Assembly: GCA_965649265.1 (NCBI GenBank)
Contig: CBFGKC010000023.1
Coordinates: 1 to 23,790, forward strand
From: a candidate division WOR-3 bacterium
GTDB lineage: Bacteria > Hydrothermota > Tepidihabitantia > B3-TA06
Direction of reading: 5' to 3'
DNA length: 23,790 nt
Shown: piece by piece, positions 3,479-22,123 of the stretch
How positions within the stretch are numbered: the first letter of the stretch is position 1
How the letters are laid out: each line of letters opens with the position of its first letter
The notes under the pieces: generated by a model
Databases searched by the model: none
What the model was told of the DNA's origin: nothing
Seen by the model: only the letters and a program-made list of their open reading frames with translations
Translations under genes and position numbers: made by a program

Positions 3479-3506
3479 ATTATAGGGGCTCGCCTTAACG
3501 TGTCAA
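3479..3506 (-). promoter_or_regulatory. sigma70-like promoter for tRNA-Leu/tig-clpP-clpX (proximal)
   Basis: TTGACA-N16-TATAAT on the minus strand. Confidence 0.8.
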
Positions 3507-3523
3507 CATAAGCCTTTAGGTGA

Positions 3524-3563
3524 AGAATACTCCGCGAAGTGACGCGCGCAATAGAAACCTGAC
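3524..3563 (-). promoter_or_regulatory. Putative second (distal) promoter for the tRNA-Leu/tig operon, overlapping a 24-bp shared motif
   Basis: TTGCGC(3551-3546)-N16-TATTCT(3529-3524). 3540-3563 matches 20717-20740 at 22/24 nt. Confidence 0.5.
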
Positions 3564-3564
3564 G

Positions 3565-3592
3565 TTGACACGGAATTTTTGCGGGATATCAT
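3565..3592 (+). promoter_or_regulatory. sigma70-like promoter of purL (probably leaderless)
   Basis: TTGACA-N16-TATCAT, then CCGAA and GTG at 3598. No Shine-Dalgarno sequence. Confidence 0.7.
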
Positions 3593-3597
3593 CCGAA

Positions 3598-6450
3598 GTG
3601 ATTTACAGAATAGAAGTGTCGAAGAAAGGCCAGGACCCCCAGGTGGAGGGACTCGTCAGATTATTAGTTGAGGAGGGACTTCCTTCCAAAGGTCTCTCGA
3701 TCATCAGGGTTTACTTTTTGAAAAGCGAACTATCCAAAGGAGATATCGAGATGCTCGCCTGTGAGCTGTTCGCGGACCCCGTGAGCGAGGAACTTTCATT
3801 CGGCCGCTCGGTTCCATCCGGACTCCGGGCTTTAGAGGTATGGTATCATCCCGGGGTGTCCGATCCCGAATCTAACTGGATACTCGCTCATCTCAAGGCA
3901 AGGAATCTTGCAGTCGAGGACGTCAGAAGAGCCACAAGGTTCCTTTTTCCGGCCTCCGTTCCCAGGGCCAAGCTCGTGAGATTCGCGGAGCGTCATCTTT
4001 TCAATCCATTGATCCAGCATCTTACGGTGAGGGGCGAGGAGCCTTTTCCATATTATCACGGCGCACGCTTCAAACAGGAGTTCGTCAAGCTTGATGGACT
4101 TACAGAAGACGAGCTGATGGAACTCTCCTCAAAATCGAGCTGGCACTTCGACGAATCGGAGCTAGGGGCCATAAGGAAACATTTCAAGGATCAGGGGCGT
4201 GACCCTTCGCTCATTGAGATAGAGACGCTGGCTCAGACCTGGTCCGAACACTGCGTGCACAAAACTTTCAATGCCTCCTTCGAGGTCGCAGGAGAGAAAT
4301 TCACGAACCTCCTCAAGGAAACCATAATGAAACCCTCAAGGGACCTTGAACTCCCGTGGTGCCTCTCGCTTTTCAAGGACAACTCCGGAGTGGTCGAGTT
4401 TTCGAAAGACTGGGCGCTCTCATTCAAGGTGGAGACGCACAACCATCCTTCGGCAATCGAGCCTTACGGCGGGGCCGCCACCGGGATAGGCGGTGTAATA
4501 AGAGATGCGCTCGGCACAGGCCTCGGAGCCGACCCGGTGCTGAATACGGACATCTTCTGCTTCGGACCGCCGGGGTTTCCTTCGCGTAAACTTCCGAAAG
4601 GTGTTCTCTCGCCGCGCAGGGTTCTTGAAGGAGTCGTCGGCGGGGTGCGTGACTACGGCAACAGAATGGGTATACCCACCGCAGCGGGTGCCATCTACTT
4701 CGACGAGCTTTATCTTGCCAACCCTCTGGTTTACTGTGGAACCGTCGGCATAATGCCTAAGAGCGCGGTGGAAAAGAAGGTTTCAAAGGGCGATGTGATA
4801 GTGCTTGCAGGAGCAAGGACCGGAAGAGACGGCATACATGGCGTCACGTTCGCTTCAACGGCTCTTGCCGGCTCATCGCAGACGAAATACGGCTCGGCCG
4901 TACAAATCGGCAATCCCATAGAGGAGAAGCTGTTGAGGGATCTCGTTATTGCGGCAAGAAACAAGGGCCTTATCTCGAGCATAACAGACTGCGGGGGTGG
5001 AGGTCTCTCTTCCGCGGTTGGAGAAATGACAAAGAGCAACGGCTGCGTCGTAGAACTCGACAAGGTACCGCTCAAATATGCCGGGCTACTTCCGCACGAG
5101 ATATGGATTTCGGAATCGCAGGAAAGGATGATCGTGTTCGTCAAGCCCGAGAAGATAGCGAGTTTTCTTGAGCTTGCCGGGGAAGTCGGCGTAGAGGCCG
5201 CGGTAATAGGAGAAGTAACTTCGGACAAAACCCTGAGACTCAAATTCAAGGGAAACGAAATAGCCTCTTTGAGAATGGACTTTCTGCACGACGGTCTGCC
5301 TCAGCGCAAGTACCGCATTGAACCGCCGAAACCAGAAATTGAGCCGGATCCCGAAATAGTTCAGCCCAAGGATCTCGGACAGGCGCTCTTGAGACTCCTT
5401 GGGCAGATAAACATTGCCTCGAAAGAATGGGTGATAAGACAGTACGACCACGAAGTCAAAGGGACCACAGTGCTCAAACCTCTTACCGGTGTAAAAGCCG
5501 ACGCCCCTTCGGATGCGGCAGTAATACAACCCATTCTTGACGACCCTTTGTGCGTGGCAGTTTCTCACGGACTTGCACCGAGGTATGCCCTGATTGATTC
5601 ATACTGGTCGGCGGCATCCGCGATCGACGAGGCCATACGCAACCTGGTAGTCTCTGGCGGTCGCCTCGATCGTGTTGCTCTTCTCGATAATTTTTGCGCA
5701 GGAGATACGCAAGACCAGCGGATACTTTACGAGGTTGTCCGGGCGGCCGCGGCGTGCCGCGACGCCACCAAAATCTATGGAACACCTTTCATATCGGGAA
5801 AAGACAGCCTCAACAATTTCTTTACGCCCACGGAAAAGGAAAGAATAAATATTCCCACAACCCTTCTCGTATCCGCACTCACGCTGGTCAAGGACGCTTC
5901 ATGCATAATATCGTCCGATTTCAAACGTCCTCGCTCACGCATCTATCTCCTGGGAAAAACAGGATTAGAGATGGGTGGGAGCGAATACTTCCATTTAAAC
6001 ATGCAGCTGGGCACAAGCGTTCCGCATGTGGAGATGAAGCAGGCCAAGAAACGCTACCAGAAATTCGAACGAGCCGCCCGTGCGGGTCTTGTTCTTGCCG
6101 CCCACGATATATCCGAAGGGGGTCTCGGTGTCGCACTCGCCGAGATGTGCCTTGGCGGCGACATGGGTGCAAAAATCCATCTGGACATGATACCCGGAGC
6201 AAGGGAGATAACGAGAAAGGACTACCTTCTTTTTTCGGAGACCCAGAGCCGCATTCTCGTGGAAGTAAGCGAAAAATGCGCTGCGGACTTTGAAAAAATC
6301 TTCGAAGGCGAGCTCTTTGCACAGATTGGCGAGACCACTTCCGAGCCGCGCTTGATCTTGCAGGAAGACGCCCGCCGCACGATTGCGACGGTTTCAGTGG
6401 AAGAGATACGCGCATCCTGGACTCAGGGTCTGAATCGTTTCCTCGATTGA
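3598..6450 (+). CDS. purL: Phosphoribosylformylglycinamidine synthase subunit PurL with fused N-terminal PurS-like domains
   Basis: QTWSEHCVHK, FKVETHNHPSAIEPYGGAATGIGG, DCGGGGL, SESQERM, YDHEV, FISGKDSL, HDISEGG, LFSETQSR. The N-terminal ~140 aa (YRIEV...DP..LFADPV; EVWYHPGVSDP...LFNPLIQ) resemble tandem PurS units. No glutaminase domain. Start placed at GTG 3598 rather than 3520 because of the promoter position. Confidence 0.95.
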   Translation: MIYRIEVSKKGQDPQVEGLVRLLVEEGLPSKGLSIIRVYFLKSELSKGDIEMLACELFADPVSEELSFGRSVPSGLRALEVWYHPGVSDPESNWILAHLKARNLAVEDVRRATRFLFPASVPRAKLVRFAERHLFNPLIQHLTVRGEEPFPYYHGARFKQEFVKLDGLTEDELMELSSKSSWHFDESELGAIRKHFKDQGRDPSLIEIETLAQTWSEHCVHKTFNASFEVAGEKFTNLLKETIMKPSRDLELPWCLSLFKDNSGVVEFSKDWALSFKVETHNHPSAIEPYGGAATGIGGVIRDALGTGLGADPVLNTDIFCFGPPGFPSRKLPKGVLSPRRVLEGVVGGVRDYGNRMGIPTAAGAIYFDELYLANPLVYCGTVGIMPKSAVEKKVSKGDVIVLAGARTGRDGIHGVTFASTALAGSSQTKYGSAVQIGNPIEEKLLRDLVIAARNKGLISSITDCGGGGLSSAVGEMTKSNGCVVELDKVPLKYAGLLPHEIWISESQERMIVFVKPEKIASFLELAGEVGVEAAVIGEVTSDKTLRLKFKGNEIASLRMDFLHDGLPQRKYRIEPPKPEIEPDPEIVQPKDLGQALLRLLGQINIASKEWVIRQYDHEVKGTTVLKPLTGVKADAPSDAAVIQPILDDPLCVAVSHGLAPRYALIDSYWSAASAIDEAIRNLVVSGGRLDRVALLDNFCAGDTQDQRILYEVVRAAAACRDATKIYGTPFISGKDSLNNFFTPTEKERINIPTTLLVSALTLVKDASCIISSDFKRPRSRIYLLGKTGLEMGGSEYFHLNMQLGTSVPHVEMKQAKKRYQKFERAARAGLVLAAHDISEGGLGVALAEMCLGGDMGAKIHLDMIPGAREITRKDYLLFSETQSRILVEVSEKCAADFEKIFEGELFAQIGETTSEPRLILQEDARRTIATVSVEEIRASWTQGLNRFLD

Positions 6451-7235
6451 TGATAGCTGGAGTTTTACAATTCGCGCCCGAATGGGGATCAAAGGAAGCG
6501 AATTTTCGAAAGATTAAAACGCTTTGTGAAGGAAAGAGTGTCGATTTGCTCGTTCTTCCCGAGTTATCAACGACCGGATACTTTTTTCTGTCGCGCAAGG
6601 AACTTGAACCGCTGGCCGAAAGATTTCCAGGCGGAGAGACCACCGATTTTCTTACCTCTCTCGCAAAGCAAGTTGAAGGGTACGTTGTCGCCGGTGTCGC
6701 GGAAAAGGATGAGGAAAAGCTTTACAACTCTGCCGCACTGGTCGGTCCGGAAGGATTTGTCGCCATATACCGCAAAGTTCACCTCTTCTCTAGCGAGAAA
6801 AAGGTTTTCGATCCGGGCAATCTCGGGTTTCCCGTTTTCGACCTGGGTTTCGCCAAGGTGGGGATGATGATCTGCTTCGACTGGATATTTCCCGAATCCG
6901 CTCGCTCACTCGCACTGGAGGATGCTGATGTCATCGCTCATCCTGCCAATCTGGTTCTACCGTACTGTCCCCAGACGGTTTTTACGCGGGCGCTTGAAAA
7001 TCATGTATTCTACATGCTCGCAAACAGGACAGGCAAAGAAAGGCGAAGGGATATCGAGCTGAATTTTATTGGGCAGAGCCGGATCATAGGTACAAAGGGC
7101 GAGATGCTTGCATCGCTGGAGGGGGAGGAGGGGCTCATCACCTCCACAATTGAACCTTTCCATGCAAGAGATAAACACATCACGCCAGATAACGACCTTT
7201 TCCTTGACAGACGCCCTCAACAGTACAAACTCTAG
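6450..7235 (+). CDS. Nitrilase-superfamily carbon-nitrogen hydrolase
   Basis: Glu-Lys-Cys triad motifs VLPEL, YRKVHLF and ICFDWIFPE, plus RALEN, ANRTG and FIGQS. ATG overlaps the purL stop (TGATG). Confidence 0.92.
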   Translation: MIAGVLQFAPEWGSKEANFRKIKTLCEGKSVDLLVLPELSTTGYFFLSRKELEPLAERFPGGETTDFLTSLAKQVEGYVVAGVAEKDEEKLYNSAALVGPEGFVAIYRKVHLFSSEKKVFDPGNLGFPVFDLGFAKVGMMICFDWIFPESARSLALEDADVIAHPANLVLPYCPQTVFTRALENHVFYMLANRTGKERRRDIELNFIGQSRIIGTKGEMLASLEGEEGLITSTIEPFHARDKHITPDNDLFLDRRPQQYKL

Positions 7236-7539: not shown

Positions 7540-7567
7540 TTGACATGTAGAAAGATGCCTATATAAT
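7540..7567 (+). promoter_or_regulatory. sigma70-like promoter of the Roadblock/LC7 gene
   Basis: TTGACA-N16-TATAAT; GGAGG RBS at about 7579-7583. Confidence 0.8.
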
Positions 7568-7587
7568 GACTTTTCATTGGAGGATAG

Positions 7588-8007
7588 ATGCCAGGACTTG
7601 AAGATAAACTACGTGCGATACTTTTCAAATTGACACAATCTTCACCAGAAATCCAAGCATCGGCTGTGGTAAGCATGGATGGTCTCATGCTGGCCTCAGC
7701 ACTTCCCGCCGGAACAAAGGACGACGATGTAGCTGCAATATCGGCAACCCTTCTAGGTCTTGGCGAGCGGACGGTGGAGGAGTTCCGTCAAGGAACGCTG
7801 GAGCAGGTATACGTCAAGGGAAGCAAGGGATACACCATCATCACGAATACTGGTCAGGATACCGTGATCGTAGTGGTGACCGATGAAAACGCGAAGCTGG
7901 GACTCATCTTTTACCAGATCAGAATTGTGGCCAAAGAGGTCTCACAGGCCTTCGCAAATCTCCTTGACGTCCCGGGACCGGGACAGCCAAACACCTTCAT
8001 AAGATAA
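7588..8007 (+). CDS. Roadblock/LC7 (MglB-like) domain protein
   Basis: AVVSMDGLMLASALP, VAAISATLLGLGER, LEQVYVKGSKGY and AKLGLIF are typical of the Roadblock/LC7 family. Has its own promoter and RBS. Confidence 0.9.
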   Translation: MPGLEDKLRAILFKLTQSSPEIQASAVVSMDGLMLASALPAGTKDDDVAAISATLLGLGERTVEEFRQGTLEQVYVKGSKGYTIITNTGQDTVIVVVTDENAKLGLIFYQIRIVAKEVSQAFANLLDVPGPGQPNTFIR

Positions 8008-8073: not shown

Positions 8074-8868
8074 TCACGAAAACTTGCTCCTGGCCTTTTT
8101 TACAAGGTTGGTCAGAAGCGTCAGACCGTGAGGCTCACCGGAGAACTCGCTGCGGGGATTGAGTGGATGCTGCTGCTGAAGCACGAAACGTTCAGGATGA
8201 GGCATGAGACCCATAACCTGCCCGGACGGGTCGGTAATTGCGGCGATGTGGCCTTCCGAGCCATTAGGGTTTGCAGGGTACTTCGGAGGAGTACCGTCGT
8301 TGGTTGCGTAGCGAAGAATGATCTGGCCGTTCGTCTCGAGCTGGCGAAGCACTTTTTTGTCCTTCACGGTGAACCTTCCCTCGGCGTGCGCGACTGGCAG
8401 GTTGATAACCTTCGGAAGCCCCTTTACCCAGAAGCTTGAGCCTTCCGGCTTGAGATATACCCAGCGGGCCTCGAACCGCAGGGATTGGTTCGCTTCGAGA
8501 GTAACGGACGGTTTCTCGAACGGTTTCTCGAAAAGCGGCAACAGCCCGCTCTTGACAAGAATCTGAAAACCGTTGCATATACCTATTATAAACTTGCCGT
8601 CTTTCAGGAATTGCGAAATTTCCTTGGACATGCTGTGCTTTAAATCGGCGGCAAAGAGCGTTCCTGCTCCCACGTAATCGCCGTACGCGAAGCCGCCCGG
8701 AAAAACGAGGATGTGGTAGGAACCGAGATCTTCCGGATGACGGCAGAACAGCCTAAGGCTCTCCTCAACAACTTCGCAGCCGAGCAGGCGGAAAGCAAAG
8801 ACCGTTTCGGCATCGCAGTTGGTTCCGGGACCCGACAGCACAAGAACTTTTAATGCAGATGAACTCAC
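8074..8868 (-). CDS. purQ: Phosphoribosylformylglycinamidine synthase glutaminase subunit PurQ
   Basis: GPGTNCD, PGGFAYGD, catalytic GICNGFQ, PVAHAEG, NPNGS, GLMPHPER. Confidence 0.96.
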   Translation of the reverse strand: MSSSALKVLVLSGPGTNCDAETVFAFRLLGCEVVEESLRLFCRHPEDLGSYHILVFPGGFAYGDYVGAGTLFAADLKHSMSKEISQFLKDGKFIIGICNGFQILVKSGLLPLFEKPFEKPSVTLEANQSLRFEARWVYLKPEGSSFWVKGLPKVINLPVAHAEGRFTVKDKKVLRQLETNGQIILRYATNDGTPPKYPANPNGSEGHIAAITDPSGQVMGLMPHPERFVLQQQHPLNPRSEFSGEPHGLTLLTNLVKKARSKFS

Positions 8869-8873
8869 TTTGG

Positions 8874-8901
8874 AGTGTATCTAACCGCTAAATTTTGTCA
8901 A
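8874..8901 (-). promoter_or_regulatory. sigma70-like promoter of purQ (probably leaderless)
   Basis: TTGACA-N16-TACACT, then CCAAA and GTG at 8868. No Shine-Dalgarno sequence. Confidence 0.7.
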
Positions 8902-8997: not shown

Positions 8998-10392
8998 TCA
9001 GTTCTTGATGTGTATAGCCTGCTTCTTGACGTTCTCGGCAGCCTCCATCACCGCCTCAAGAAGTGTGGGGTGAGGGTGAACGGACGAGCCGAGCACTTCA
9101 AAGGATGCGTCAAGCTCGAGGCCTATTATGCCCTCGCCTATGAGTGTGTCGGCGTTGGCACCAAGAACGTGCATGCCGAGAAGTTGACCTGAACCCTTCT
9201 CGGCGATTATCTTCACGAATCCGTCGCGCTCGCCCAGGGTTGCTGCTCGGCCCAGTGCGGAGTAAGGGAACCTGCCGATGAGGATATCGTACCCGGCGTC
9301 AATGGCCTGTTTTTCCGACAGCCCGACTGAGGCGACGTTAGGAATCGTGTAGATGCAAGCCGGCATGGCCTTCGGGTTGTAGCCCACGTCGTGACCGGCG
9401 ATCACCTCTGCGGCAACCACACCCTGTCTCGTCGCGCGGTGCGCGAGAAGGGGGGGGCCCGTGACATCCCCGATAGCATAGATTCCGGGAACGGTGCTTT
9501 CTAGCCTGTCCGAGACCCGTATGAATCCCTTCTTGTCTGTCTCTATCGGAACGGTGGGAGACCAGAGATTCTCCGTGAGGGGCTTGCGTCCCACACCCAG
9601 AAGGAGCTTTTCGACGTCCTTTTCGATCTTCCGACCGTCATGCGTTTCGATGACTGCATGAAGACCGCCGGCCGTATTTGAGATGTCGGCGATTTTGGAC
9701 GAGAGGTGGAGGTCGATGCCCTGTCTTGAGATAAGTTTCGCAAGGTTTTCTGCGATCTCTGAATCGAGACCGGGCTGTACCTGCGGCATTATTTCGACGA
9801 CAGTGACCTTGGTTCCGAACGCGTTGTAGATGGTTGCCATCTCGAGGCCGGTCGCGCCGGCGCCCACCACCAGCATGGATTCAGGGACGCTAGAGAAAAA
9901 AAGGGCGCGTTCGGCATAGAAGATTCGCTCGTCGTCGGGCACGAGCCCGGGAAGAGGGGTAGGCGCGGAGCCTGTGGCGATTATTACGGCATCTGCCTCG
10001 AGAAGTTCCGAACCTGAAGCAAAACCGACCTCTACTTTGCCGGGCTCAGGGATGTGTGCGAGGCCGCGGAAGAGTTCGATGCCGTATGCGTTGAAGAGGA
10101 ACTCCACACCCTTGACCAGCTTCGTGACCGTCGCATCCTTCCACTGCTGGAGCCTGGGAAAATCCATACCCTTATCTTCAAAGCCAAGCCCCATACGCTC
10201 GAAGAGGGGGAGGGAGTGCTTTATCTCGGCGGCGTGGCAAAGTGCTTTTGTCGGTATGCATCCCCAGTTGAGACACACCCCGCCCACCGCGTTCTTTTCG
10301 ACTACGGCGACCTTTTTCCCCAGTTGGGCAAGCCTGATAGCTGCCGGATACCCCCCCGGGCCCGCACCTATCACAACGGCATCGTATTTCAT
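8998..10392 (-). CDS. lpdA: Dihydrolipoyl dehydrogenase
   Basis: FAD-binding GAGPGGY, redox disulfide GGVCLNWGCIPTK, ATGS, IYAIGDV, LAHRA, C-terminal HPHPTLLE. AAGGAG RBS. Confidence 0.95.
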   Translation of the reverse strand: MKYDAVVIGAGPGGYPAAIRLAQLGKKVAVVEKNAVGGVCLNWGCIPTKALCHAAEIKHSLPLFERMGLGFEDKGMDFPRLQQWKDATVTKLVKGVEFLFNAYGIELFRGLAHIPEPGKVEVGFASGSELLEADAVIIATGSAPTPLPGLVPDDERIFYAERALFFSSVPESMLVVGAGATGLEMATIYNAFGTKVTVVEIMPQVQPGLDSEIAENLAKLISRQGIDLHLSSKIADISNTAGGLHAVIETHDGRKIEKDVEKLLLGVGRKPLTENLWSPTVPIETDKKGFIRVSDRLESTVPGIYAIGDVTGPPLLAHRATRQGVVAAEVIAGHDVGYNPKAMPACIYTIPNVASVGLSEKQAIDAGYDILIGRFPYSALGRAATLGERDGFVKIIAEKGSGQLLGMHVLGANADTLIGEGIIGLELDASFEVLGSSVHPHPTLLEAVMEAAENVKKQAIHIKN

Positions 10393-10441: not shown

Positions 10442-10469
10442 ATTCTAGCGCGAGGGCATCCCTTGTCAA
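10442..10469 (-). promoter_or_regulatory. sigma70-like promoter of lpdA
   Basis: TTGACA-N16-TAGAAT on the minus strand. Confidence 0.75.
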
Positions 10470-10635
10470 GTTTTGAGGTCCGCAGACAGAAGGTTACTGT
10501 TTGAAACACCTTACGGAAAAAACGACGTGAAACGAATGCAGGAGCAAATGATTTCTTCAGACTGTCTTGACGAAGACGTATGAAACAAATAAAGGTGGAA
10601 GGCGAAATTTGAATTGTTGTGGGTAAAAAAAAATC

Positions 10636-10663
10636 TTGACAACCCTCCTGGAGGAGGTATAAT
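10636..10663 (+). promoter_or_regulatory. sigma70-like promoter of the repeat-protein pair
   Basis: TTGACA-N16-TATAAT, with an A-tract (UP-like) immediately upstream. Confidence 0.8.
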
Positions 10664-10697: not shown

Positions 10698-11903
10698 ATG
10701 AAAAGGTTGTTGGTTTTCCTTTCCTTATTTCCATTATCGATTTTGACCGCAGGTTGGATGAAAACTTACGGTGACATATATGACGACTACGGTCAGTGCG
10801 TGCGCACGACCAAGGACGGCGGGTATATAGTGGTCGGTACCACCTCATCTTACGGATTGCTTCCGGTAAGCCTCTGGCTGCTGAAGCTGGACGCTAACGG
10901 CGATACAACCTGGATGCACACCTACGGCAGAAAAGCCAAATCTTCGCTGTCATCTTCAGGCGTCGGGGTAGTCGAGATTCCTGACGGCGGTTACGTAACT
11001 GCCGGAATCTCAATTTCAGGCAACGTTGTTCTGGATTCAAGGGGATACGGTGTGGACGAGGAACTTATTACTATGTCACTTGAAAAAACGGAAATAGCCA
11101 TGTGGCTTTTAAAGACAAACTCCGCGGGCGGCGCGATATGGGAAAGAACTTACCTCGGGAAGCATGCAAGTACCGCGCATTATTTGTGCGCCACATCCGA
11201 CGGCAACTTCGTTGCGGTGGGTACTGCGGCTGACACGTCCGGAAAGAAACCACTAGATCATCTCTACATTGTAAAAGCAAGCATTCGCGGCGACGAGATG
11301 TGGAACAAAATATACATGGGCGACGTATCGTCGGGAGGCTCCTGCATTGTGGAAACCCCGGACAAGGGTCTTGCGGCTTGCGGACGGAGAGGTGAGGATG
11401 CATGGCTTTTAAAGACCGATTCGGCCGGCAACATCCTCTGGGCGCGCACGTACGGCGGATCGAAGGATGACGTTGCTCTTTCATTGGCCGTGGCGGCCGA
11501 CGGCGGTTTTTTTATGGCGGGCAGCACCTTATCAGCTGGAGCAGGGAAAACAGACCTTTGGCTCGCAAGAACGGATTCTCTCGGTGATACTTTGTGGACA
11601 AAAACTTACGGCGGCGAGAAGGAGGACTGCGGTATGTCTATCGTTGTCACCCCAGGCGGCGGAGCCGTGATTGCAGGCTACACGAAATCGCAGGGTGCCG
11701 GAAGAAAGGACGCCTGGCTTCTCGAAGTGGATTCCGAAGGCAAGCTTTTGTGGCAGAAAACCTTCGGCACCTGGCAGGACGAGGAGGCGACATCCGTGGA
11801 CAAAACAACGGACGGCGGCTACGTGGTTACCGGCTACTTTACCCAGAAAGGCTCACAGGACCTCTGGATAGCTAAGGTCGACTCGAAAGGCAATGTGAAC
11901 TGA
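10698..11903 (+). CDS. Secreted repeat protein, probable beta-propeller (paralog 1)
   Basis: GGAGG RBS then ATG 10698. Signal peptide MKRLLVFLSLFPLSILTA. About 7 repeats of ~50 aa: W.(K/R)TYGG...D....T.DGG....G......WL.K.D..G. The fold is inferred. Confidence 0.85.
   Translation: MKRLLVFLSLFPLSILTAGWMKTYGDIYDDYGQCVRTTKDGGYIVVGTTSSYGLLPVSLWLLKLDANGDTTWMHTYGRKAKSSLSSSGVGVVEIPDGGYVTAGISISGNVVLDSRGYGVDEELITMSLEKTEIAMWLLKTNSAGGAIWERTYLGKHASTAHYLCATSDGNFVAVGTAADTSGKKPLDHLYIVKASIRGDEMWNKIYMGDVSSGGSCIVETPDKGLAACGRRGEDAWLLKTDSAGNILWARTYGGSKDDVALSLAVAADGGFFMAGSTLSAGAGKTDLWLARTDSLGDTLWTKTYGGEKEDCGMSIVVTPGGGAVIAGYTKSQGAGRKDAWLLEVDSEGKLLWQKTFGTWQDEEATSVDKTTDGGYVVTGYFTQKGSQDLWIAKVDSKGNVN
11763..11827 (+). 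repeat. 65-nt exact direct repeat, copy 1 (partner 13102-13166)
   Basis: TTCGGCACCTGGCAGGACGAGGAGGCGACATCCGTGGACAAAACAACGGACGGCGGCTACGTGGT is identical in both paralogs. Confidence 0.95.
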
Positions 11904-13309: not shown

Positions 13310-14782
13310 CTAATCTCCGAACGCGCGCTTGAGGGTCTCCTGTGACGGCTTTTTCGTAAAAAGCGAAACGAAGACGATCACGAGCAGGGCGACCACGATG
13401 CCGGGGATGAACCCGTGGATGCCCGAAGCGGCCACAAACTTCAAGCCCAGCTTCCCCAGCACCTGCCATGCGAGCGCGACAGATGAGCCGATAATCATGG
13501 AAAGCAGGACCCCCATCTTCGACGCGCCGCGCCAGTAGATTCCAAAAAGCATCGGCCACAGGTTCGTGGAGGCGATTATCGCCCAGGCAAAGCCCGTAAT
13601 GACGAGTATGAGGTCGGGCGGTTTGATGGCGATGACGAGCGAGATAAGCCCGGCTATGAGGCTGACGATCCTTCCCCAGAGAACCTGCTTTTTGTCCGAC
13701 ATGTCGACCTTGAGCCCTTTCTCTACGACGTCACGTACGACTCCTGAGGAGACTATGATGAGAACGGACGCGAACGTACTCATGCCTGCGGCGAGGACCC
13801 CGGCCAAAAGAAGCCCGCCCGCCCAGGGGGGGAGGGTGTGCTTGACGAGCGTGGGTATAGCAAGGTCGGGGTTTGCAAGATTGGGAAAGAGCACTCGCGC
13901 GGCCGCTCCGGTAAGGTATGGCAGCAGCGCGATCGAGCCGCCAACGGTGGCCACAACGGTTCCTATCCGCAAGAGCTTGGTTTTCTCGATGGAATAAAAG
14001 CGGACGACCAGCTGCGGCATTCCCCACACCCCGAAGCTCATGATGAGTGAGAAGCTTATAAGCCCCGCCCATCCCCACTCGCCTGGTGTCTGGATGAGTC
14101 CCATATTGATGGCGGCAAGGGATTGGTTGAGCTTGGCGAATCCACCCACGGCCATGACGGCAAAGATGCTCATAAAGACGAGCGCGAATATCATCACCCA
14201 TCCCTGCAGAAAGCTGGTCCACACGACCGCCAGGTAGCCGCCCACCGCGACGTAGAGTAGAATGAGGAGACCGGAGACGAGGACCGATGTGATGTAGGGC
14301 CAGCCCATAAGAACCTCGAACGCGTTGCCCATACCCTTGAGAACGCTCACGTTGTAGATTATGAGGAAGATGATGATTACGGCCGCTGAGAACAGCCGGG
14401 ATGTGGGCGAGTTGAAGCGCTCGGCGAAGAACTCGGGAACGGTCATGGTTCCGAGCCTGTGAGTCATCTTCCTGACGCGCGGCCCCATCACGGCCCACAC
14501 AAGGAAGCACCCTACGAGCACGTTGATAGCGCCTATCCAGAGCGTCGAAAGCCCGTACTTGTAGCCGAATCCTCCGCCGCCGATGATGAGAACGGATGAG
14601 AAGTATGCGGCTATGAAGGAGAGGGCTGTGACCCACGGCCCAAGCTTGCGACCGCCCAGAAAGTAGTCCTCACTCTTTGAGGATTTTCTTCCCGCGAGAA
14701 TCCCTACAAGTATCGTAACCGCGAAGTAGACAACGATTATTGCCCAGTAGGTGAAGGCTGGTGTTTTAATGAAATCAATCAT
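13310..14782 (-). CDS. Sodium:solute symporter (SSS family, PutP/PanF-like); substrate unknown
   Basis: About 13 hydrophobic segments, EDYFLGGRKLGPW, TVPEFFAERF, YVAVGGYLAVVWT, GMPQLVVRFY, Na+-site motif GVLAAGMST. Confidence 0.92.
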   Translation of the reverse strand: MIDFIKTPAFTYWAIIVVYFAVTILVGILAGRKSSKSEDYFLGGRKLGPWVTALSFIAAYFSSVLIIGGGGFGYKYGLSTLWIGAINVLVGCFLVWAVMGPRVRKMTHRLGTMTVPEFFAERFNSPTSRLFSAAVIIIFLIIYNVSVLKGMGNAFEVLMGWPYITSVLVSGLLILLYVAVGGYLAVVWTSFLQGWVMIFALVFMSIFAVMAVGGFAKLNQSLAAINMGLIQTPGEWGWAGLISFSLIMSFGVWGMPQLVVRFYSIEKTKLLRIGTVVATVGGSIALLPYLTGAAARVLFPNLANPDLAIPTLVKHTLPPWAGGLLLAGVLAAGMSTFASVLIIVSSGVVRDVVEKGLKVDMSDKKQVLWGRIVSLIAGLISLVIAIKPPDLILVITGFAWAIIASTNLWPMLFGIYWRGASKMGVLLSMIIGSSVALAWQVLGKLGLKFVAASGIHGFIPGIVVALLVIVFVSLFTKKPSQETLKRAFGD

Positions 14783-14924: not shown

Positions 14925-14952
14925 ACTATACGTATCCGAAGGACATAGTCAA
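14925..14952 (-). promoter_or_regulatory. sigma70-like promoter of the small protein/SSS operon
   Basis: TTGACT-N16-TATAGT on the minus strand. Confidence 0.7.
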
Positions 14953-15053
14953 GGATAACCATTCACTTCGGCGAAGCAAACAACAGGGATATGTCCGATA
15001 AGCTACGCTCCACGAAGGTTTGTTAAAATTTCAAGGAAAGCGGTGCAATCCCC

Positions 15054-15091
15054 GGGGTCCACCAAAAAGTTGCGAGCAACTTTTTGGTGGA
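15054..15091. repeat. REP-like perfect inverted repeat (divergent family member)
   Basis: TCCACCAAAAAGTTGC-GA-GCAACTTTTTGGTGGA, a 16-bp perfect stem at 15058-15091, preceded by GGGG like the other copies. Confidence 0.7.
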
Positions 15092-15097
15092 TAACCC

Positions 15098-15125
15098 TTG
15101 ACTCGAATGCAACGAGGAGTATATT
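15098..15125 (+). promoter_or_regulatory. sigma70-like promoter of the DUF3160 operon
   Basis: TTGACT-N16-TATATT; AAGGAGG RBS at about 15141-15147. Confidence 0.7.
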
Positions 15126-15151: not shown

Positions 15152-17206
15152 ATGCGCGCGTCTTTGATCGTTTTCTTAACCTTAAACATGGGAGTTCTCA
15201 TGGCCTACTCGGGTAAACTGAAGGATGTAAAAGCGCTTGAGAGCGAGAAAGATCTGTTGTCAAACATCGGTGAGAGCGAGTTCTCGAGGATAAATTCGCT
15301 CGGCTTCGTTCTTGTTCAGACCGGCAAGGACGAGATATACGATCTGTACCAGGGTTACTACAGCTCACCCTACACCCCCATGTTCGTTTCAGTGGATCTG
15401 ACGTTTCACACCATGCATCTTCTTGTGGACCGCGCGGTTCGAAAAATGGAAGTGGAGGAACTCCTGCCTAAGCTCGAAAAGCTTGTCACAGGGATGCTCG
15501 AGATGGCAAAGAAGGATTACGCGAGCATGAAGGGTGAGGGCTCCAAAATAGCCGAATCCGAACTCATCTACTTCGCTGTGGCACAAGGACTCCTTGGTAA
15601 GGAGCCCGACGTGAAAGGCATCGTTAAAACAAAGGTGGATGAGGAGCTTGCGAGAATCGAACGTCATGAGGGTATTTACGACGTTACTTTCCTCGCCGAG
15701 ACAAAGGAGGATTACTCCCAGTACGTGCCGCGCGGCCATTACACGCGTTCCGACGACCTCAAGCGCTACTTCAAGGCAATGATGTGGCTGGGACGGCTTC
15801 CCCTTCACGTGCCGAAGGAAGGCAAGGATCAGCAGGCGTTCAGAACTGCCCTGCTCGTTTCGTACAATCTCTCGCAGAGCGCGGAGCTAAAGGAATTGTG
15901 GAAGGAGATATACGATCCCACCGCCTTCTTCTTCGGATCGGCTGAGGACCTCACGGTGGAGATATTGGAGAAGGAGACGAGCAAATTCTATGGAAATAAG
16001 GGAATAGCGGAGATATTGGCCGACGCGGCAAAACTTGAGGAATTTGCCAGGCTATTGAGGACGAAATATCAGCCCAAGATCCTTTCGGAGTACGCGGAGT
16101 CAAAACCGGGCGAGGAGCCTATAGAGGTTCCCGTATCTTTTCGATTCATGCCCCAGCGGTTCGTCCCGGATTCTTACATGATGACCGAGCTTGTAGCCGA
16201 CAGGGTTCGCGACTACGAGGGAGAGTATCTTGGAGGAAGTCCCCTGCCTTTCACCTGCGGCATGACCGAGATGGGCCCAATGCGCGTCTTCCCGAGAGGG
16301 TTGGACGTAATGTCAGTAATCGGATGGCAGCCGGCGGAAGAGATAATCTCCGCGGACGGCGACGCCATGTACAAGAACTACCCGGAGCAGTTGGAGAAGA
16401 TGAGAACGTGGTATTCTTCCCTGTCAGAGGATGAACGGGCTTCTTCGATTTACTTCAGGTGGTTCGAGATGTTTTCTGTCTATAAGCAGACTGTTCCACC
16501 GCCGGACGTGGACGCGGACGCGTGGGCACGGAAGATGCTGTTCACGACGCTCGGCTCCTGGACAGAGCTCAGGCACGATGCAATCCTCTACGCCAAGCAG
16601 AGCTACACCGGCTACGTTACGGGCGCACCGCCCGGCAGGGATACCGAACCCCCTCCCCCACCGCTGGAGCTTGCGGTCATAGAGGAGTCGCCGGAGATTT
16701 ACGTGATAATGGCTGAATGTTCAGGGATGATCGCCGACTTCATCGGCGAGAAGGAAGGCTACAACCAGATAAGGGAAACCTTCATCGAGTTGGAGCAAAC
16801 CCTTTTGAAGATGGACACGCTGGCCCGCAAGCAGATGTTTGGAAACCTCTCAAAGGATGAGCATGCCTGGTTGTGGCACCTGCCCGGCAAACTCTCCGGT
16901 TTTAAGTACATGCTGGGGGACATCCCGGAGACCGAGGCCGACGAAAGGATGGCGCTGGTTGCCGACGTTCACACTGACCCTAACACTAAACAAGTGCTGG
17001 AGGAGGCGACCGGCAACCCTGCCAGGATGTACGTGATTGTCGGCATCGGCGGAAAGAAATACGTGGCGCAGGGTGCCGCCTTTACGTATTACGAGTTCAA
17101 GCAGCCGCTTTCGGACCGTCTCACGGACGAGGCGTGGCAGGCCAGACTCGATTCGTACGAGGCGACTCCCATGCCTTCCTGGACAGACATCTTCTTCACA
17201 AGGTAG
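15152..17206 (+). CDS. DUF3160 domain-containing exported protein
   Basis: Recognised family motifs EDYSQYVPRGHYT, YFKAMMWLGR, FRFMPQRFVPDS, LGSWTELRHDAILYAKQSY, LVADVHTD, VLEEATG, YYEF and RLTDEAW. Hydrophobic N-terminus and strong RBS. Confidence 0.88.
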   Translation: MRASLIVFLTLNMGVLMAYSGKLKDVKALESEKDLLSNIGESEFSRINSLGFVLVQTGKDEIYDLYQGYYSSPYTPMFVSVDLTFHTMHLLVDRAVRKMEVEELLPKLEKLVTGMLEMAKKDYASMKGEGSKIAESELIYFAVAQGLLGKEPDVKGIVKTKVDEELARIERHEGIYDVTFLAETKEDYSQYVPRGHYTRSDDLKRYFKAMMWLGRLPLHVPKEGKDQQAFRTALLVSYNLSQSAELKELWKEIYDPTAFFFGSAEDLTVEILEKETSKFYGNKGIAEILADAAKLEEFARLLRTKYQPKILSEYAESKPGEEPIEVPVSFRFMPQRFVPDSYMMTELVADRVRDYEGEYLGGSPLPFTCGMTEMGPMRVFPRGLDVMSVIGWQPAEEIISADGDAMYKNYPEQLEKMRTWYSSLSEDERASSIYFRWFEMFSVYKQTVPPPDVDADAWARKMLFTTLGSWTELRHDAILYAKQSYTGYVTGAPPGRDTEPPPPPLELAVIEESPEIYVIMAECSGMIADFIGEKEGYNQIRETFIELEQTLLKMDTLARKQMFGNLSKDEHAWLWHLPGKLSGFKYMLGDIPETEADERMALVADVHTDPNTKQVLEEATGNPARMYVIVGIGGKKYVAQGAAFTYYEFKQPLSDRLTDEAWQARLDSYEATPMPSWTDIFFTR

Positions 17207-17209
17207 CTC

Positions 17210-18378: not shown

Positions 18379-18468
18379 TCTTTCCTGCGCTTCGAAGCCC
18401 TCAGTCTCAATGGAAGGGAGGGTGGATTGTTTTGAGGATTTCTGGGGTTCACTGGAAAGTATTAAGGA

Positions 18469-19329
18469 CTATATTGACAGGTAATCCGCAAGGTTCTCTA
18501 CGTTGAAGCAGCCGCCCTCGGCCTCAAAGGCGACAAGGTATTCGTAACCGTTCTTTATGAAGACAAAAACATAGTACGGGGCCGAATTACGGTAATCCGA
18601 GCCATGCAGATATTTATAATCGTATACCACTCGCGCCCGCACCCTGTAGGCAGCAACTCCGTAGAAAGGCGCGGCGCAGCGCATAAGGCTTGAAGGTTTG
18701 TTCCATTTTGGATTGTTGAAACGGCTTATGAATACCCCATCCTCGCATGCACGGTCGAACGCTTTGCGCGCCCGTACTGAGTCCATAAGAGTATCTGAGG
18801 TTGAAGACCAAGAGACAACAAGAGTGCCGCCGTACTCAAAACCACCACATACACTTGACAAACAAGAAGCCATGACGAACCCTTCTTCTGGGGTTCCGAC
18901 TCCATCACAAATAAACAAATCTCTCCCACCTCCCAGGTAGTGGATTTTGACGGGTTTGCTTAAGTTCTCAAGTTTATCCGAATAAAGATAGAAAATGAGT
19001 TTTCTCCTTATCTCATCCGACAAATTACTGAGCGTCTCCGAGGTTGGTTTAAGTGAATCCATTGCCCAGTCAAGGCTTTTGCCTTCATCCATTAAAAATA
19101 CGATCTGACTGTCGAGTTCCTTAGCGGCCTCAGAGTAGGTTTTAACAACAGGAGCGACTAATTGGTAGTTGGATGAAATTGTATCATTGTAGCTTGGTTT
19201 TGTAACACTCATGACGTATTGGAACCATTCATTTATGCATCTATACTTCTCAAAACTCAGCTGAGCGTCCAAGACACTGACATTCAAAAACAAAAAAGCT
19301 ATGAATAGTTCTTTTCGCATGGCAACCAC
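18469..19329 (-). CDS. Hypothetical secreted protein (7 Cys); start GTG 19329 or ATG 19320
   Basis: 286-aa ORF in AT-richer DNA. Signal peptide MRKELFIAFLFLNVSVLDA|Q. A consensus promoter lies directly upstream. Confidence 0.8.
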   Translation of the reverse strand: MVAMRKELFIAFLFLNVSVLDAQLSFEKYRCINEWFQYVMSVTKPSYNDTISSNYQLVAPVVKTYSEAAKELDSQIVFLMDEGKSLDWAMDSLKPTSETLSNLSDEIRRKLIFYLYSDKLENLSKPVKIHYLGGGRDLFICDGVGTPEEGFVMASCLSSVCGGFEYGGTLVVSWSSTSDTLMDSVRARKAFDRACEDGVFISRFNNPKWNKPSSLMRCAAPFYGVAAYRVRARVVYDYKYLHGSDYRNSAPYYVFVFIKNGYEYLVAFEAEGGCFNVENLADYLSI

Positions 19330-19336
19330 TTGTTAG

Positions 19337-19364
19337 ATTATAAAACTAAAGTTTACTTTGTCAA
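19337..19364 (-). promoter_or_regulatory. Consensus sigma70-like promoter of the secreted hypothetical gene
   Basis: TTGACA-N16-TATAAT, 7 nt before GTG 19329, fitted into a 48-bp intergenic gap. Confidence 0.8.
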
Positions 19365-19377
19365 GTGTCCCCTATTC

Positions 19378-20676
19378 TTATTTCCCGAACCTCATATACT
19401 GGTGGATTAAACCTACCACATGTCGGGGTGTAAACACCCCTCCAAAAGCCTTTTCGTTCACACCTGTTTTTTTGTTTTCCTTCGCAACCTCAAGGATGCG
19501 GTGCGAGATATACCCGGCAAGCCAGCGGGCCGTAATGCCTGCCGAGCTTGTCAGGGTGTCTAACCCCATGTTGTCCGCGTCGAACTCGTCAAGAAGAGGA
19601 CTTGGATTCCCGGGAGCCCAGAACTCGTCACGTTCCCTAGGGACATCCCCAGAGTAAGGTCTGAGAAACTCTGGTATAACGTCCTTCCTTATCGCCGGGG
19701 GATATAAAGTCTGCAAAAGCCAGCCATAACTTACGTGGCAAGTATTGCCAGCCTCAAATATAGTTTGTGGGGTAACAACAACAATATCGTTGTTGCTCAG
19801 CCGAACACTTCTCGTGCATTCGCCTAATTCAGCCACCTTGTGAAAAAGCCAGCAAAGATATGCTATGCTGATATTCTTACCCATGCAGTTATAGAATTCT
19901 GAAGACGGCAGCACGTCAAGTGCCGCACCAACGCAATGAGCGCTTTGAGAAGCCTGGCCGACCTGAGTCTGCCAATACAGGGTTCTATATCCTCCGTGTA
20001 TTTCAAGATTGCCTGAGCCGACATCGCTGAATACGGTATGCCATTCCCTATTCGTTTCTAAGAAAAGAATGGCGATATCAGGTATTATGAATGCTTTCTC
20101 CTCCTCTCCCGTTTTTTTCTCCTCAAGTGATTTTCCGCTTGCAACTGCATTAGGTTGACTTGTGTCTCTTTCACCAGGAAAGGCATAAGGGTACAGTTCC
20201 CGCGCCGTGAAATACATCGCCCTGCGCCAGGCTTCGCTTGTCGCGGTTTTCGCCCTTTCAAAGCAATAGTCGTAATCATCGTAGCTGGATATCTTGAATC
20301 CAAGCTTCCGGGTCGAATACGTTATGTGTTCAGGCGGGATTCGCCACACGGTCATGCAATAAGTAATATAATCCAGTATCCTTCGCAGCCGGTTGCACTT
20401 TTCCTGTGATGCGAACGTAAAACCGGTGTAAGTTTGAATCAAGGCATGTGCTGAGTTGTTGTATACTGGCAGGATCCCAGGCCTTTTTCCCGGCTGCCAG
20501 AGATTGGTTGAGTATCCCAGTTCATCGAACTGACCCTGCGCGGAATCAATGTATAAATAGATGAAATACGCCCACGCCTTCATATCCTGCGGGTCAAAGT
20601 CCGGAAAGAGCGAAGGATCGGGCGGCGCTTTAGGCGAGACCTGCGAAAGAATATTCTCGATTGTGGCATAAGCCAT
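19378..20676 (-). CDS. Hypothetical protein with a putative peptidase M15 (Hedgehog/DD-peptidase-fold) Zn site
   Basis: AAGGAGGT RBS then ATG 20676 (432 aa). Motifs IHGGYRT, SAHCVGAALD (H-x6-D) and QTIFE...CHVSY appear in the M15 order. No signal peptide. The ORF is secure; the domain call is tentative. Confidence 0.65.
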   Translation of the reverse strand: MAYATIENILSQVSPKAPPDPSLFPDFDPQDMKAWAYFIYLYIDSAQGQFDELGYSTNLWQPGKRPGILPVYNNSAHALIQTYTGFTFASQEKCNRLRRILDYITYCMTVWRIPPEHITYSTRKLGFKISSYDDYDYCFERAKTATSEAWRRAMYFTARELYPYAFPGERDTSQPNAVASGKSLEEKKTGEEEKAFIIPDIAILFLETNREWHTVFSDVGSGNLEIHGGYRTLYWQTQVGQASQSAHCVGAALDVLPSSEFYNCMGKNISIAYLCWLFHKVAELGECTRSVRLSNNDIVVVTPQTIFEAGNTCHVSYGWLLQTLYPPAIRKDVIPEFLRPYSGDVPRERDEFWAPGNPSPLLDEFDADNMGLDTLTSSAGITARWLAGYISHRILEVAKENKKTGVNEKAFGGVFTPRHVVGLIHQYMRFGK

Positions 20677-20700
20677 AACAGACCTCCTTTGATTTTGAAC

Positions 20701-20740
20701 ATTATCTCCCGTTTGATGACGCAGGCAATAGAAACCTGAC
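20701..20740 (-). promoter_or_regulatory. Putative promoter of the M15-motif gene, with the shared 24-bp motif
   Basis: TTGCCT(20728-20723)-N16-GATAAT(20706-20701). 20717-20740 matches 3540-3563 at 22/24 nt. Confidence 0.55.
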
Positions 20741-20801
20741 CACAGGCTCAAAACTCCCTAAATTACGGTACTAATAACCTTAAGAGAGAATTCGACTAAA
20801 A

Positions 20802-20837
20802 GGGTTCCCAAAGAAACGCCCCTGCGTTTCTTTGGGA
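20802..20837. repeat. REP-like hairpin immediately after the patatin stop; may also act as a terminator
   Basis: TCCCAAAGAAACGC-CCCT-GCGTTTCTTTGGGA, a 14-bp perfect stem at 20806-20837 with the same sequence family as 70-100. ACCCTTTT follows on the minus strand. Confidence 0.8.
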
Positions 20838-20838
20838 T

Positions 20839-21813
20839 TTATTTAAGCTTCTCCCACCACCGGGGGGAGGCCTTCTCGAGCTTTTCCGGGACGTTCTGAC
20901 GCGCCCATAGAGCGGTCTCCTCGTACTGCTCGCGCTGGGTGTCGAAGTCGAGCATGGAGTAGGACTTGGAGAGCTTAGGCATGTAAAGGTACGCGCGTCT
21001 CGCGATATAGGGCGCGCGCTCGAGTTGGCAGTTGAACATGTCGTTATTGAGGATGCTCGAAGCCTCCAGGTAGTTTGAAAGGATCCTGGGAGCGGTGAAG
21101 AGCTTCTTCTTTCCGAACTCCTCCCCCTTCTTCTCTTTCCCGCCCCGCATCTTGGAGATGATATAAATTTCGGAACAGTTCTCATATGCGAGCGCCTCGA
21201 CCGGAATGCCGTCGCGGCCCGTGCAGCCGTCAACGAACTCGCCCGTAAGCCCCGCTATCGTTTGAGGCTTGAAGGCGACCGCAATCGCCGTGGATGCCAT
21301 GAGAACGTCGAGCAAAAGAAGCTTCGCGTGCTTCGGGTCGCGGCTCGAAAGCCGCAGTGTCTCGCGCTTGTCGGTGTCAACCACGGAGATGTAGGTCGGC
21401 AAATAAAGGCTGCCGAGGGTATCGAAACCCATGCGTGCGAGGACCCGGGATAGAAACTCGCGAAGGGGTGAGGTGTCTAGCACGAAACCGTCCGCGATGT
21501 TCGTCGTGAATATCCTGCCTATGCCTTTGACGCTAATGTCGAATACCTTCTCGTTTCCCAGGGTGAAGAGAAGCGACTTGTAGTCGCCCCAGTCGAAGCG
21601 GGAACCCGATTGCTCATTCTTAGACCGCAGAACCGCGTTGACGGCCACCGCGTTAAGGGCGCCCGAGCTCGCGCCGGAGACGACGTCGGGCACGATCTTT
21701 TTTTCGAGCGGGGTAAGGCCTTCGATTAAAGCCTCCGATAGCGCGCACTCCTGGGCAATACGCGCCGCGGCACCTGAGAATACGAAGCCCACCTTCGGGT
21801 TAATGATGTTCAT
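20839..21813 (-). CDS. Patatin-like phospholipase family protein
   Basis: VGFVFSGAAAR (Gly-loop variant), nucleophile GASSG-ALNA, LDTSPLR, LMASTAI, catalytic FVDG(C). Start ATG 21813 or GTG 21816, just below the promoter. Confidence 0.85.
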   Translation of the reverse strand: MNIINPKVGFVFSGAAARIAQECALSEALIEGLTPLEKKIVPDVVSGASSGALNAVAVNAVLRSKNEQSGSRFDWGDYKSLLFTLGNEKVFDISVKGIGRIFTTNIADGFVLDTSPLREFLSRVLARMGFDTLGSLYLPTYISVVDTDKRETLRLSSRDPKHAKLLLLDVLMASTAIAVAFKPQTIAGLTGEFVDGCTGRDGIPVEALAYENCSEIYIISKMRGGKEKKGEEFGKKKLFTAPRILSNYLEASSILNNDMFNCQLERAPYIARRAYLYMPKLSKSYSMLDFDTQREQYEETALWARQNVPEKLEKASPRWWEKLK

Positions 21814-21824
21814 CACGGTTATTG

Positions 21825-21852
21825 AGGATAGCGTAGCTTCAGAGTTTGTCAA
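21825..21852 (-). promoter_or_regulatory. sigma70-like promoter of the patatin gene (leaderless or very short leader)
   Basis: TTGACA-N16-TATCCT, 8 nt before GTG-ATG. No Shine-Dalgarno sequence. Confidence 0.65.
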
Positions 21853-22031
21853 GCCCCCCTCAGAACTCTTCCCATGTGAGGAAACTGGAAACGGATTACT
21901 ATTGTTCGCGACAGTTAAAAGGAAGTTGGTGACGTTTCTCACCGGGGCTGGGTCCCAGGCCGAGAACGTAGTTATCGACTGAGGCACGAAGTGAGATCCC
22001 TCAAGAAGTACTCCGTGATTGTTTGGGGCAT

Positions 22032-22091
22032 GTGTTACGGGCGGGGTCCCCAGAGAAATGCTCAGCATTTCTTTGGGGTAAGTGTTACGGG
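22032..22091. repeat. REP-like element: hairpin flanked by two GTGTTACGGG decamers
   Basis: GTGTTACGGG at 22032-22041 and 22082-22091. CCCCAGAGAAATGC-TCA-GCATTTCTTTGGGG at 22048-22078. Confidence 0.8.
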
Positions 22092-22095
22092 GGGC

Positions 22096-22123
22096 TTGAC
22101 AGGAATTGGAAATCTCTTATAAT
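22096..22123 (+). promoter_or_regulatory. Consensus sigma70-like promoter of rho
   Basis: TTGACA-N16-TATAAT; GGGAGG RBS before ATG 22176. Confidence 0.8.

Follow-up and report, generated by a model that had tools for sequence, protein, structure and literature searches.

Housekeeping promoters of Escherichia coli and Bacillus subtilis, read by sigma70 and SigA, are made of a -35 box (TTGACA) and a -10 box (TATAAT) with 17 ± 1 base pairs (bp) between them. Transcription starts approximately 7 nucleotides (nt) downstream of the -10 box. Promoters with 16 bp are a minority class in E. coli, and are read as deliberately suboptimal. Here we analyse a 23.8 kb stretch of DNA, hereafter the window, from a candidate division WOR-3 bacterium (contig 23 of a 27-contig, 2.74-Mb assembly, GCA_965649265.1, with 51% guanine-cytosine (GC) content). 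Most promoters of this genome carry 16 bp between the two boxes. Judged by their sequence, they are ordinary promoters of the housekeeping group-1 sigma factor (sigma70/SigA type), with canonical TTGACA and TATAAT boxes.

As for published surveys, the available text of one study (PMC8695583) gives 17 bp as the commonest spacer in E. coli, followed by 18 bp. For species with mapped transcription starts, the accessible part of another (NAR 2025, PMC12641261) reports a predominant 17-bp spacer in 49 out of 49. The ProFinder preprint (September 2026, 10.64898/2026.09.23.753901) also gives, in the portion available, a median spacer of 17 in 49 of 49 genomes, and states that 17 bp is “significantly below baseline in none” of 67 phyla, which may or may not include WOR-3 and Mcinerneyibacteriota. 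Pooling by phylum would hide the mosaic that we describe in WOR-3. No lineage with a 16-bp mode was reported in the literature searched; most subscription journals lay outside this search, and an older report is possible.

Other lineages are known for altered housekeeping promoters. In Bacteroidota, sigmaA promoters have the form TTTG / TAnnTTTG. Alphaproteobacterial -10 boxes lack the T at -7, a change that the available part of the source ties to the polymerase (PMC7703639). The WOR-3 case is similar in that one promoter feature differs from its E. coli form throughout a lineage. The difference is that the former cases alter the sequence of the boxes, whereas WOR-3 alters only the distance between them, and flips it within one phylum.

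Across both strands of the genome, the exact pattern TTGACA-Nx-TATAAT is found 3, 91, 22 and 1 times at x = 15, 16, 17 and 18, with 0 to 3 sites at each of the other lengths from 10 to 24. When the -10 box is relaxed to TANNNT, the counts are 19, 612, 134 and 87, and when the -35 box is relaxed instead (TTGNNN-Nx-TATAAT) they are 14, 165, 52 and 8, over a background of approximately 16. Bumps seen with the loose -10 pattern at 18 and at 21-22 vanish with exact TATAAT; at least in part, they are shadows that arise when TATAAT is read two bases further along. A spacer of 16 bp is the mode of this genome (approximately 80%), 17 bp is a real minority (approximately 20%), and 15 and 18 bp are essentially unused. 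The original prediction, made on the window alone, had proposed a genome-wide histogram as its check; the mode is the same genome-wide, and the window is no outlier.

The likeness to the sigma70/SigA promoters is seen in the hexamers, in the reading residues of sigma regions 2.4 and 4.2, in the regions of RpoD, in the placement before genes and in an implied start approximately 6-7 nt after the -10 box. In contrast, the mode is 16 and not 17, with a narrower, skewed distribution where 15 and 18 stay at background. The value of 16 still falls inside the accepted sigma70 range of 15-19 bp, and only the mode differs. The E. coli promoter rrn P1 and the synthetic tac share with these sites the 16 bp between canonical boxes and, for the former, the use at ribosomal RNA (rRNA) operons; unlike them, the present genome has 16 bp as the norm for all kinds of genes. 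As 16 bp is not shorter than the organism's own modal spacer, these sites do not belong to a suboptimal minority class.

The 612 TTGACA-16-TANNNT sites have 611 distinct spacers, and just 11 out of 186,966 pairs differ at 3 bases or fewer, therefore they are not copies of a repeat family. On a crude map of open reading frames (ORFs), 464 of the 612 lie outside long ORFs, compared to 6-12 for off-target spacings. These boxes are very dense, given a genome 0.6 times the size of E. coli K-12. In K-12, exact TTGACA-N16/17/18-TANNNT gives 9, 13 and 11 matches against 20, 24 and 30 for the reversed pattern, with no enrichment at any spacing; it was thus rejected as an uninformative same-method control, and Bacillota genomes were used instead. 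Consensus boxes are far more frequent in the WOR-3 genome than in E. coli, and its lineage keeps its promoters unusually close to consensus.

Within the window, the 13 promoter-like sites first listed are all present at the coordinates first given and on the strands shown below, with exactly 16 nt between hexamers in each. At least 10 of the 12 consensus bases are matched by 11 of the 13, as in sigma70-type boxes, and five match 12/12, in agreement with the initial count of perfect sites. Between positions 3001 and 23000, TTGNNN-N14..19-TANNNT with at least 10/12 matches returns 11 sites, all with spacer 16. The pattern TTGACA-N14-20-TANNNT also gives 11 matches in the window, against 0.55 expected, and none of 100 shuffles reaches 11. 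A built-in promoter scan, which allows spacers of 16-18 only, reports 33 promoter-like sites against 12.9 ± 3.0 in shuffles. From its 12 sites with at least 10/12 matches, 11 have spacer 16 and one, 7271(+) TTGACA-17-AATGAT, has 17. The statement that no site at 17 was found is overstated, given the real 17-bp minority seen genome-wide.

The closest full-length matches of RpoD, with 75% and 74% identity, are records titled Candidatus Stahlbacteria, which assigns the genome to WOR-3/Stahlbacteria. In the available text of PMC12285271, this name corresponds to the candidate phylum WOR-3 / Stahliibacteriota. At class level we counted exact TTGACA-N16-TATAAT and TTGACA-N17-TATAAT in 41 genomes, with the reversed pattern as control. 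All 41 have more sites at 16 than at 17, from 10 vs 8 to 139 vs 4 and 225 vs 23, with shares from 57:43 to 97:3. The reversed pattern gives 0-6 matches per genome, in this sample and in the phylum-level one below, against tens to hundreds of real matches. The lineage-wide shift that had been predicted holds as a mode, genome-wide, in the whole class sample and in other WOR-3 families. It fails as a strict rule, with around 80:20 in the genome of the window.

At phylum level, an even sample of 151 genomes was taken, and the 123 with at least 15 perfect sites were classified. With a ratio of 2:1 or more as the limit, 41 of them prefer 16 and 30 prefer 17, and the other 52 lie in between. One family (f25; families are numbered here with an f) is strictly 17, with 24 vs 1466 sites over 8 genomes (for instance 2 vs 128, 1 vs 190 and 4 vs 237). 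Also strictly 17 are f18, f27, f32, f36 and f40. Outside the class of the window, 16 is favoured in f19, f16, f20, f26, f28 and f38, and f21, f33, f11 and f13 are mixed. The family-level share of 16-bp sites is continuous, from 0.02 to 0.92. In DNA sampled from four genomes of the phylum (200-400 kb each), perfect pairs at 15/16/17/18 number 0/1/14/0, 0/9/10/0, 0/4/0/0 and 0/0/7/0; spacers of 15 and 18 are unused whichever mode holds. GC content does not follow the mode, with 16 found at 51% and 31% GC, and 17 at 37% and 41%.

Furthermore, 30 genomes were reached through loci matching RpoD. In each of the 12 named Bacillota genomes, sites at 17 clearly outnumber those at 16 (from 6 vs 11 to 6 vs 48 for 16 vs 17). 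This validates the counting method. Eisenbacteria, Aminicenantes, Omnitrophota, Gemmatimonadota and Saccharimonadales have at most 8 perfect sites per genome at either spacing, too few to judge. In Mcinerneyibacteriota, 16 exceeds 17 in 10 out of 10 genomes, from 13 vs 6 to 24 vs 5. The assignment to this phylum comes from the RpoC of a genome titled 'Bacillota bacterium', for which the nearest named record, Candidatus Mcinerneyibacteriota, has 94% identity. At least two candidate phyla thus have a 16-bp mode, with an origin outside WOR-3.

In terms of promoter function, 594 of the 612 sites are followed within 400 nt by the start of an ORF of at least 80 amino acids (aa), with a median gap of 28 nt. 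Both in this set and on the ORF map of the window, the sites stand upstream of genes and point towards them, as sigma70 promoters do. Start codons peak at 5, 6 and 7 nt after the -10 box (45, 55 and 28 sites, together 128 of the 612). This is the expectation for leaderless messenger RNAs (mRNAs) begun at the canonical distance after the box, and as an indirect proxy it would place starts within the 5-8 nt named in the original prediction. The start codons belong to long ORFs, and a share of about a fifth suggests that leaderless mRNAs are widespread in this lineage.

These start codons also serve as an anchor that is independent of the -35 box. When -10 boxes are chosen by ending 5-7 nt before the start codon of an ORF with 100 aa or more, the spacer to TTGA is 16 in 109 cases, 17 in 26, 15 in none and 18 in 2. 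Among likely leaderless genes, gaps of 5/6/7 nt number 17/7/2 for spacer 17 and 35/46/28 for spacer 16 (chi-square p = 0.006). With the longer spacer, the start codon lies nearer to the -10 box, as if the distance from -35 to start were partly conserved, in what are small numbers.

The 16-bp spacer is found at housekeeping targets such as the rRNA operon, tig, rho and purine genes. Three promoters precede the 16S rRNA gene and its operon, all with spacer 16 and two of them 12/12. A genome of the same genus (G001) has a syntenic contig whose coding DNA is 70-85% identical to the window. From the 11 strong promoters of the window, 10 have counterparts there whose boxes are identical or almost so and whose spacer is again 16, with largely different spacer sequences. 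For the remaining one, the likely counterpart has spacer 17. Lengths kept while the letters change show selection maintaining the spacer length at individual promoters.

As for the flanks, a logo of the 611 sites that could be cut out with flanking sequence has C before the -35 box in 59%. A T-rich stretch follows, then a G three bases before the -10 box (42%), and the downstream side is A-rich. This C and this extra G, which is not at the TGn position, set these promoters apart from the sigma70/SigA ones. At spacer positions 13-14, one base upstream of the classical TGn, there is an enrichment of the TG dinucleotide (12% vs approximately 5%). The flanking composition of 133 sites with 17 bp is the same as in the 16-bp class.

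A tree was built with FastTree (LG+gamma) from concatenated RpoB and RpoC (2554 columns, 36 genomes), rooted on two Bacillota. Three genomes were left out, one with rpoC split over two contigs, one with rpoC truncated at a contig start, and one duplicate. The sister group of the window's 16-class is a clade made up of five strict-17 families (support 0.999), and that of f25, a 17-family, consists of three 16-families (support 1.0). The weakly 17 family f15 is sister to the 16-favouring group of f19 and a genome titled 'uncultured Bacteroidales'. On this topology, at least two strong switches between 16 and 17 are needed within WOR-3, whichever state is ancestral. Together with the counts, this shows that the spacing preference is a heritable, genome-wide trait, sharply different between sister lineages of one phylum.

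Some record titles do not match the placements. The 16-favouring metagenome-assembled genome (MAG) titled 'uncultured Bacteroidales' falls inside WOR-3 on the tree, and the 16-favouring 'Bacillota' MAG is far from the two Bacillota. A MAG titled 'Cloacimonadota' is the same genome as a member of the WOR-3 sample, with identical rpoC coordinates.

Turning to the individual sites, the window encodes, by the ORF map and Pfam, clpX, tig, parts of FGAM synthase, a dihydrolipoyl-dehydrogenase-like oxidoreductase, a solute symporter and rho, together with several genes without any Pfam family. The trigger factor gene tig (1989-3221, minus strand; Pfam Trigger_N/Trigger_C) has a perfect TTGACA-16-TATAAT upstream at 3479..3506 (-). 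Its orthologue in G001 keeps both boxes and the spacer of 16 with a different spacer sequence. Divergent from it, TTGACA-16-TATCAT (11/12) at 3565..3592 (+) lies upstream of the FGAM synthase gene (ORF 3520-6450), and has identical boxes and spacer 16 in G001. A weak site lies close by at 3524..3551 (-), TTGCGC-16-TATTCT; with 7/12 matches it is at chance level alone and below the threshold of the built-in scan, and was read directly from the sequence.

Further along, a 12/12 promoter (TTGACA-16-TATAAT) at 7540..7567 (+) stands 20 nt before the ATG of a Roadblock/LC7 gene (7588-8007). At 8874..8901 (-), TTGACA-16-TACACT (10/12) has the start codon of a glutamine amidotransferase gene (8074-8868) 5 nt after its -10 box, and the mRNA of this gene is likely leaderless. 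The gene for a pyridine nucleotide-disulphide oxidoreductase (8998-10392) is preceded by TTGACA-16-TAGAAT (11/12) at 10442..10469 (-). Its divergent partner at 10636..10663 (+), a 12/12 TTGACA-16-TATAAT, is upstream of an ORF ending at 11903.

The sodium:solute symporter gene (13310-14782) is preceded by TTGACT-16-TATAGT (10/12) at 14925..14952 (-), with identical boxes and spacer 16 in the G001 orthologue. On the other strand, TTGACT-16-TATATT (10/12) at 15098..15125 (+) precedes a DUF3160 gene (15152-17206). The window thus holds three back-to-back divergent pairs (3479-3592, 10442-10663 and 14925-15125), with -35 boxes 59-167 bp apart, and this arrangement is kept in G001.

A second likely leaderless mRNA is that of ORF 18469-19329, whose start codon lies 7 nt after the -10 box of a 12/12 TTGACA-16-TATAAT at 19337..19364 (-). 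The weak TTGCCT-16-GATAAT (9/12) at 20701..20728 (-), at the 5' end of ORF 19378-20751, would not stand alone. TTGACA-16-TATCCT (10/12) at 21825..21852 (-) falls within the longest reading of a patatin ORF (20839-22068), therefore the true start of this gene is probably downstream; this is the promoter whose likely G001 counterpart has spacer 17. Finally, a 12/12 TTGACA-16-TATAAT at 22096..22123 (+) is upstream of rho (ORF 22023-23429), and its orthologue in G001 has the same boxes and spacer 16.

With regard to the cause, we lean towards a preference that would be set by the RNA polymerase holoenzyme, or by a tightly bound factor, and that would stem from distributed substitutions and not from an insertion or deletion (indel). 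The relative placement of sigma domains 2 and 4 on the core enzyme, or such a bound factor, would set the distance between the boxes. Compared with E. coli or Bacillota, the best fit would be shorter by one base pair (about 3.4 A and 34 degrees). Since the share of 16-bp sites in families runs without a break from approximately 2% to 92%, the optimum probably slides continuously between 16 and 17, and small distributed substitutions, not one indel, would shift it. More tentatively, the holoenzyme could be a retuned molecular ruler, where small substitutions on core or sigma surfaces shift the register of sigma2 and sigma4 by one base pair, with several flips in WOR-3, an independent one in Mcinerneyibacteriota and mixed lineages in between.

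The RpoD of this genome (547 aa) has the Pfam regions 1.1, 1.2, 2, 3 and 4 of a canonical group-1 sigma. In an alignment with E. coli, its regions 2.3-2.4 and 4.2 retain the reading residues, and the identical boxes fit with DNA-reading parts that are those of E. coli. In the class of the window, region 3.0 reads VRVPAHI(I/L)D in place of the widely conserved IR(I/V)PVHM(I/L)E. The changed segment includes the glutamate that reads the extended -10 TG in E. coli, and the alteration may be related to the shifted G before the -10 box. As a general cause of the spacer shift this variant was rejected, given that other 16-lineages keep the canonical form.

A column scan was done over more than 3000 columns, in E. 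coli numbering, for positions where all 16-lineages differ from both strict-17 clades. Position T317 of beta' is K or R in 14 out of 14 WOR-3 16-lineages and non-basic in 12 out of 12 strict-17 lineages. The other separating columns are R200, Q932 and S508 of beta, and D513 of sigma. With two independent clade contrasts among so many columns, these positions are candidates only, leads and not findings. Separately, a one-residue insertion at the tip of the clamp helices is confined to one 16-subclade.

Several results weigh against a holoenzyme cause. The original prediction had proposed an inspection of sigma, the beta flap and the beta' zipper for indels, and none that tracks the class was seen among the WOR-3 sequences. 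Specifically, among 29 WOR-3 sigmas no indel separates the 16- from the 17-class. The stretch between E. coli positions 440 and 585 has 145-147 residues in all 29, with 146 in 22 of them and in E. coli. Nor is there a class-specific indel in the beta flap tip, beta' zipper, zinc-binding region, lid or clamp helices. The candidate columns are contradicted outside WOR-3, where beta' 317 is T in a Mcinerneyibacteriota genome of 16-mode and sigma 513 is D in E. coli. On these alignments, no protein feature explains the spacer shift. Moreover, genome frequencies reflect selection on expression, and not necessarily the binding optimum of the enzyme.

An unlikely alternative places the cause in the DNA. 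The polymerase would be unchanged, and physical conditions in the cell, such as the superhelical set-point of the DNA, growth temperature, nucleoid proteins or ionic milieu, would put the boxes in register at 16. The continuous family shares, from 0.02 to 0.92, are what a continuous physical variable predicts, and spacer length and supercoiling interact at E. coli promoters, according to the available text of PMC8695583. Reverse gyrase marks thermophily and positive supercoiling, and its occurrence differs between the spacing classes. It scores above the family cut-off in 31 of the 151 phylum genomes, namely 11/30 of the 17-favouring, 1/41 of the 16-favouring, 4/52 of the mixed and 15/28 of those with few sites. 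The genomes that have it cluster in a single clade of strict-17 families and in families where consensus promoters are very scarce.

However, this association is confounded with that one clade. Reverse gyrase is absent from all 8 genomes of f25, the most extreme of the 17-families, and present in f20 (27 vs 7) and f10, which both favour 16, so as a cause it was rejected as neither necessary nor sufficient. In addition, a full base-pair step (approximately 34 degrees) exceeds, by estimate, the change in twist that supercoiling or temperature would produce within realistic limits.

Improbable to a similar degree is a kinetic account, where the binding optimum is still 17 and selection favours a mismatched 16, as perfect boxes with perfect spacing would bind too tightly, escape slowly or be insensitive to growth rate. 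A detuned-spacer argument of this kind has been made for E. coli rrn P1, and the rRNA promoters of the present genome have 16 bp as well. The unusually high density of consensus boxes (612 TTGACA-16-TANNNT vs 9 in E. coli K-12, where the reversed-pattern control gives 20) goes in the same direction, as does the roughly equal strength of tac (16 bp) and trc (17 bp) in E. coli. On the other hand, f25 has as many perfect promoters (128-237 per genome), nearly all at 17, therefore consensus density does not force 16. A spacer of 18 bp, equally detuned, is not used, and a lineage-specific difference in machinery or DNA is still required for the divergence of sister clades.

Far less probable is that two sigma factors read the same boxes at different spacings, with lineages differing in which one does the housekeeping. 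The genome does encode a second sigma70-family protein (511 aa, at 910-2445 (-) of a locus on contig 1), with regions 1.2, 2, 3 and 4, in which a PDZ domain separates region 1.2 from region 2; its gene is directly downstream of an ORF with a PDZ-rich-looking sequence. A second, shorter sigma match is seen in most phylum genomes, and mixed lineages use 16 and 17 side by side. However, these second matches are seen in lineages of either mode, promoters with 16 and with 17 bp in this genome share flanking composition and position relative to start codons, and the 16-bp class drives the housekeeping targets rRNA, tig and rho. Lastly, chance, the reader's search image or a dispersed repeat carrying a promoter copy is excluded as the source of the pattern, since, although the three weakest window sites were picked after it was noticed and two are at chance level, the shuffles, the low reversed-pattern control, the distinct spacers and the 41 agreeing relatives all speak against it.

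A spacer of 17 bp counts as a constant in bacterial transcription and is hard-coded in promoter predictors, and the two recent cross-phylum surveys take it to apply throughout the domain. In the present data, entire lineages prefer 16, with ratios of up to 35:1 in single genomes, next to sisters that use 17 by up to 190:1. Phylum-level pooling conceals this real variation, and for promoter prediction and the design of genetic tools in these uncultured phyla, lineage-specific spacing is advisable. The repeated switches between 16 and 17 give a comparative handle on which parts of the holoenzyme, or which state of the DNA, set the distance between -35 and -10. To our knowledge, no specific residues have yet been identified as the determinant of spacer length. 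If the holoenzyme is indeed a retuned ruler, sister enzymes with opposite and unusually strict preferences could be swapped piecewise to locate it. A cultured WOR-3 isolate exists, according to the available text of PMC12285271, which makes part of the question testable. The finding is of interest for research on transcription initiation and for tool building in uncultured phyla.

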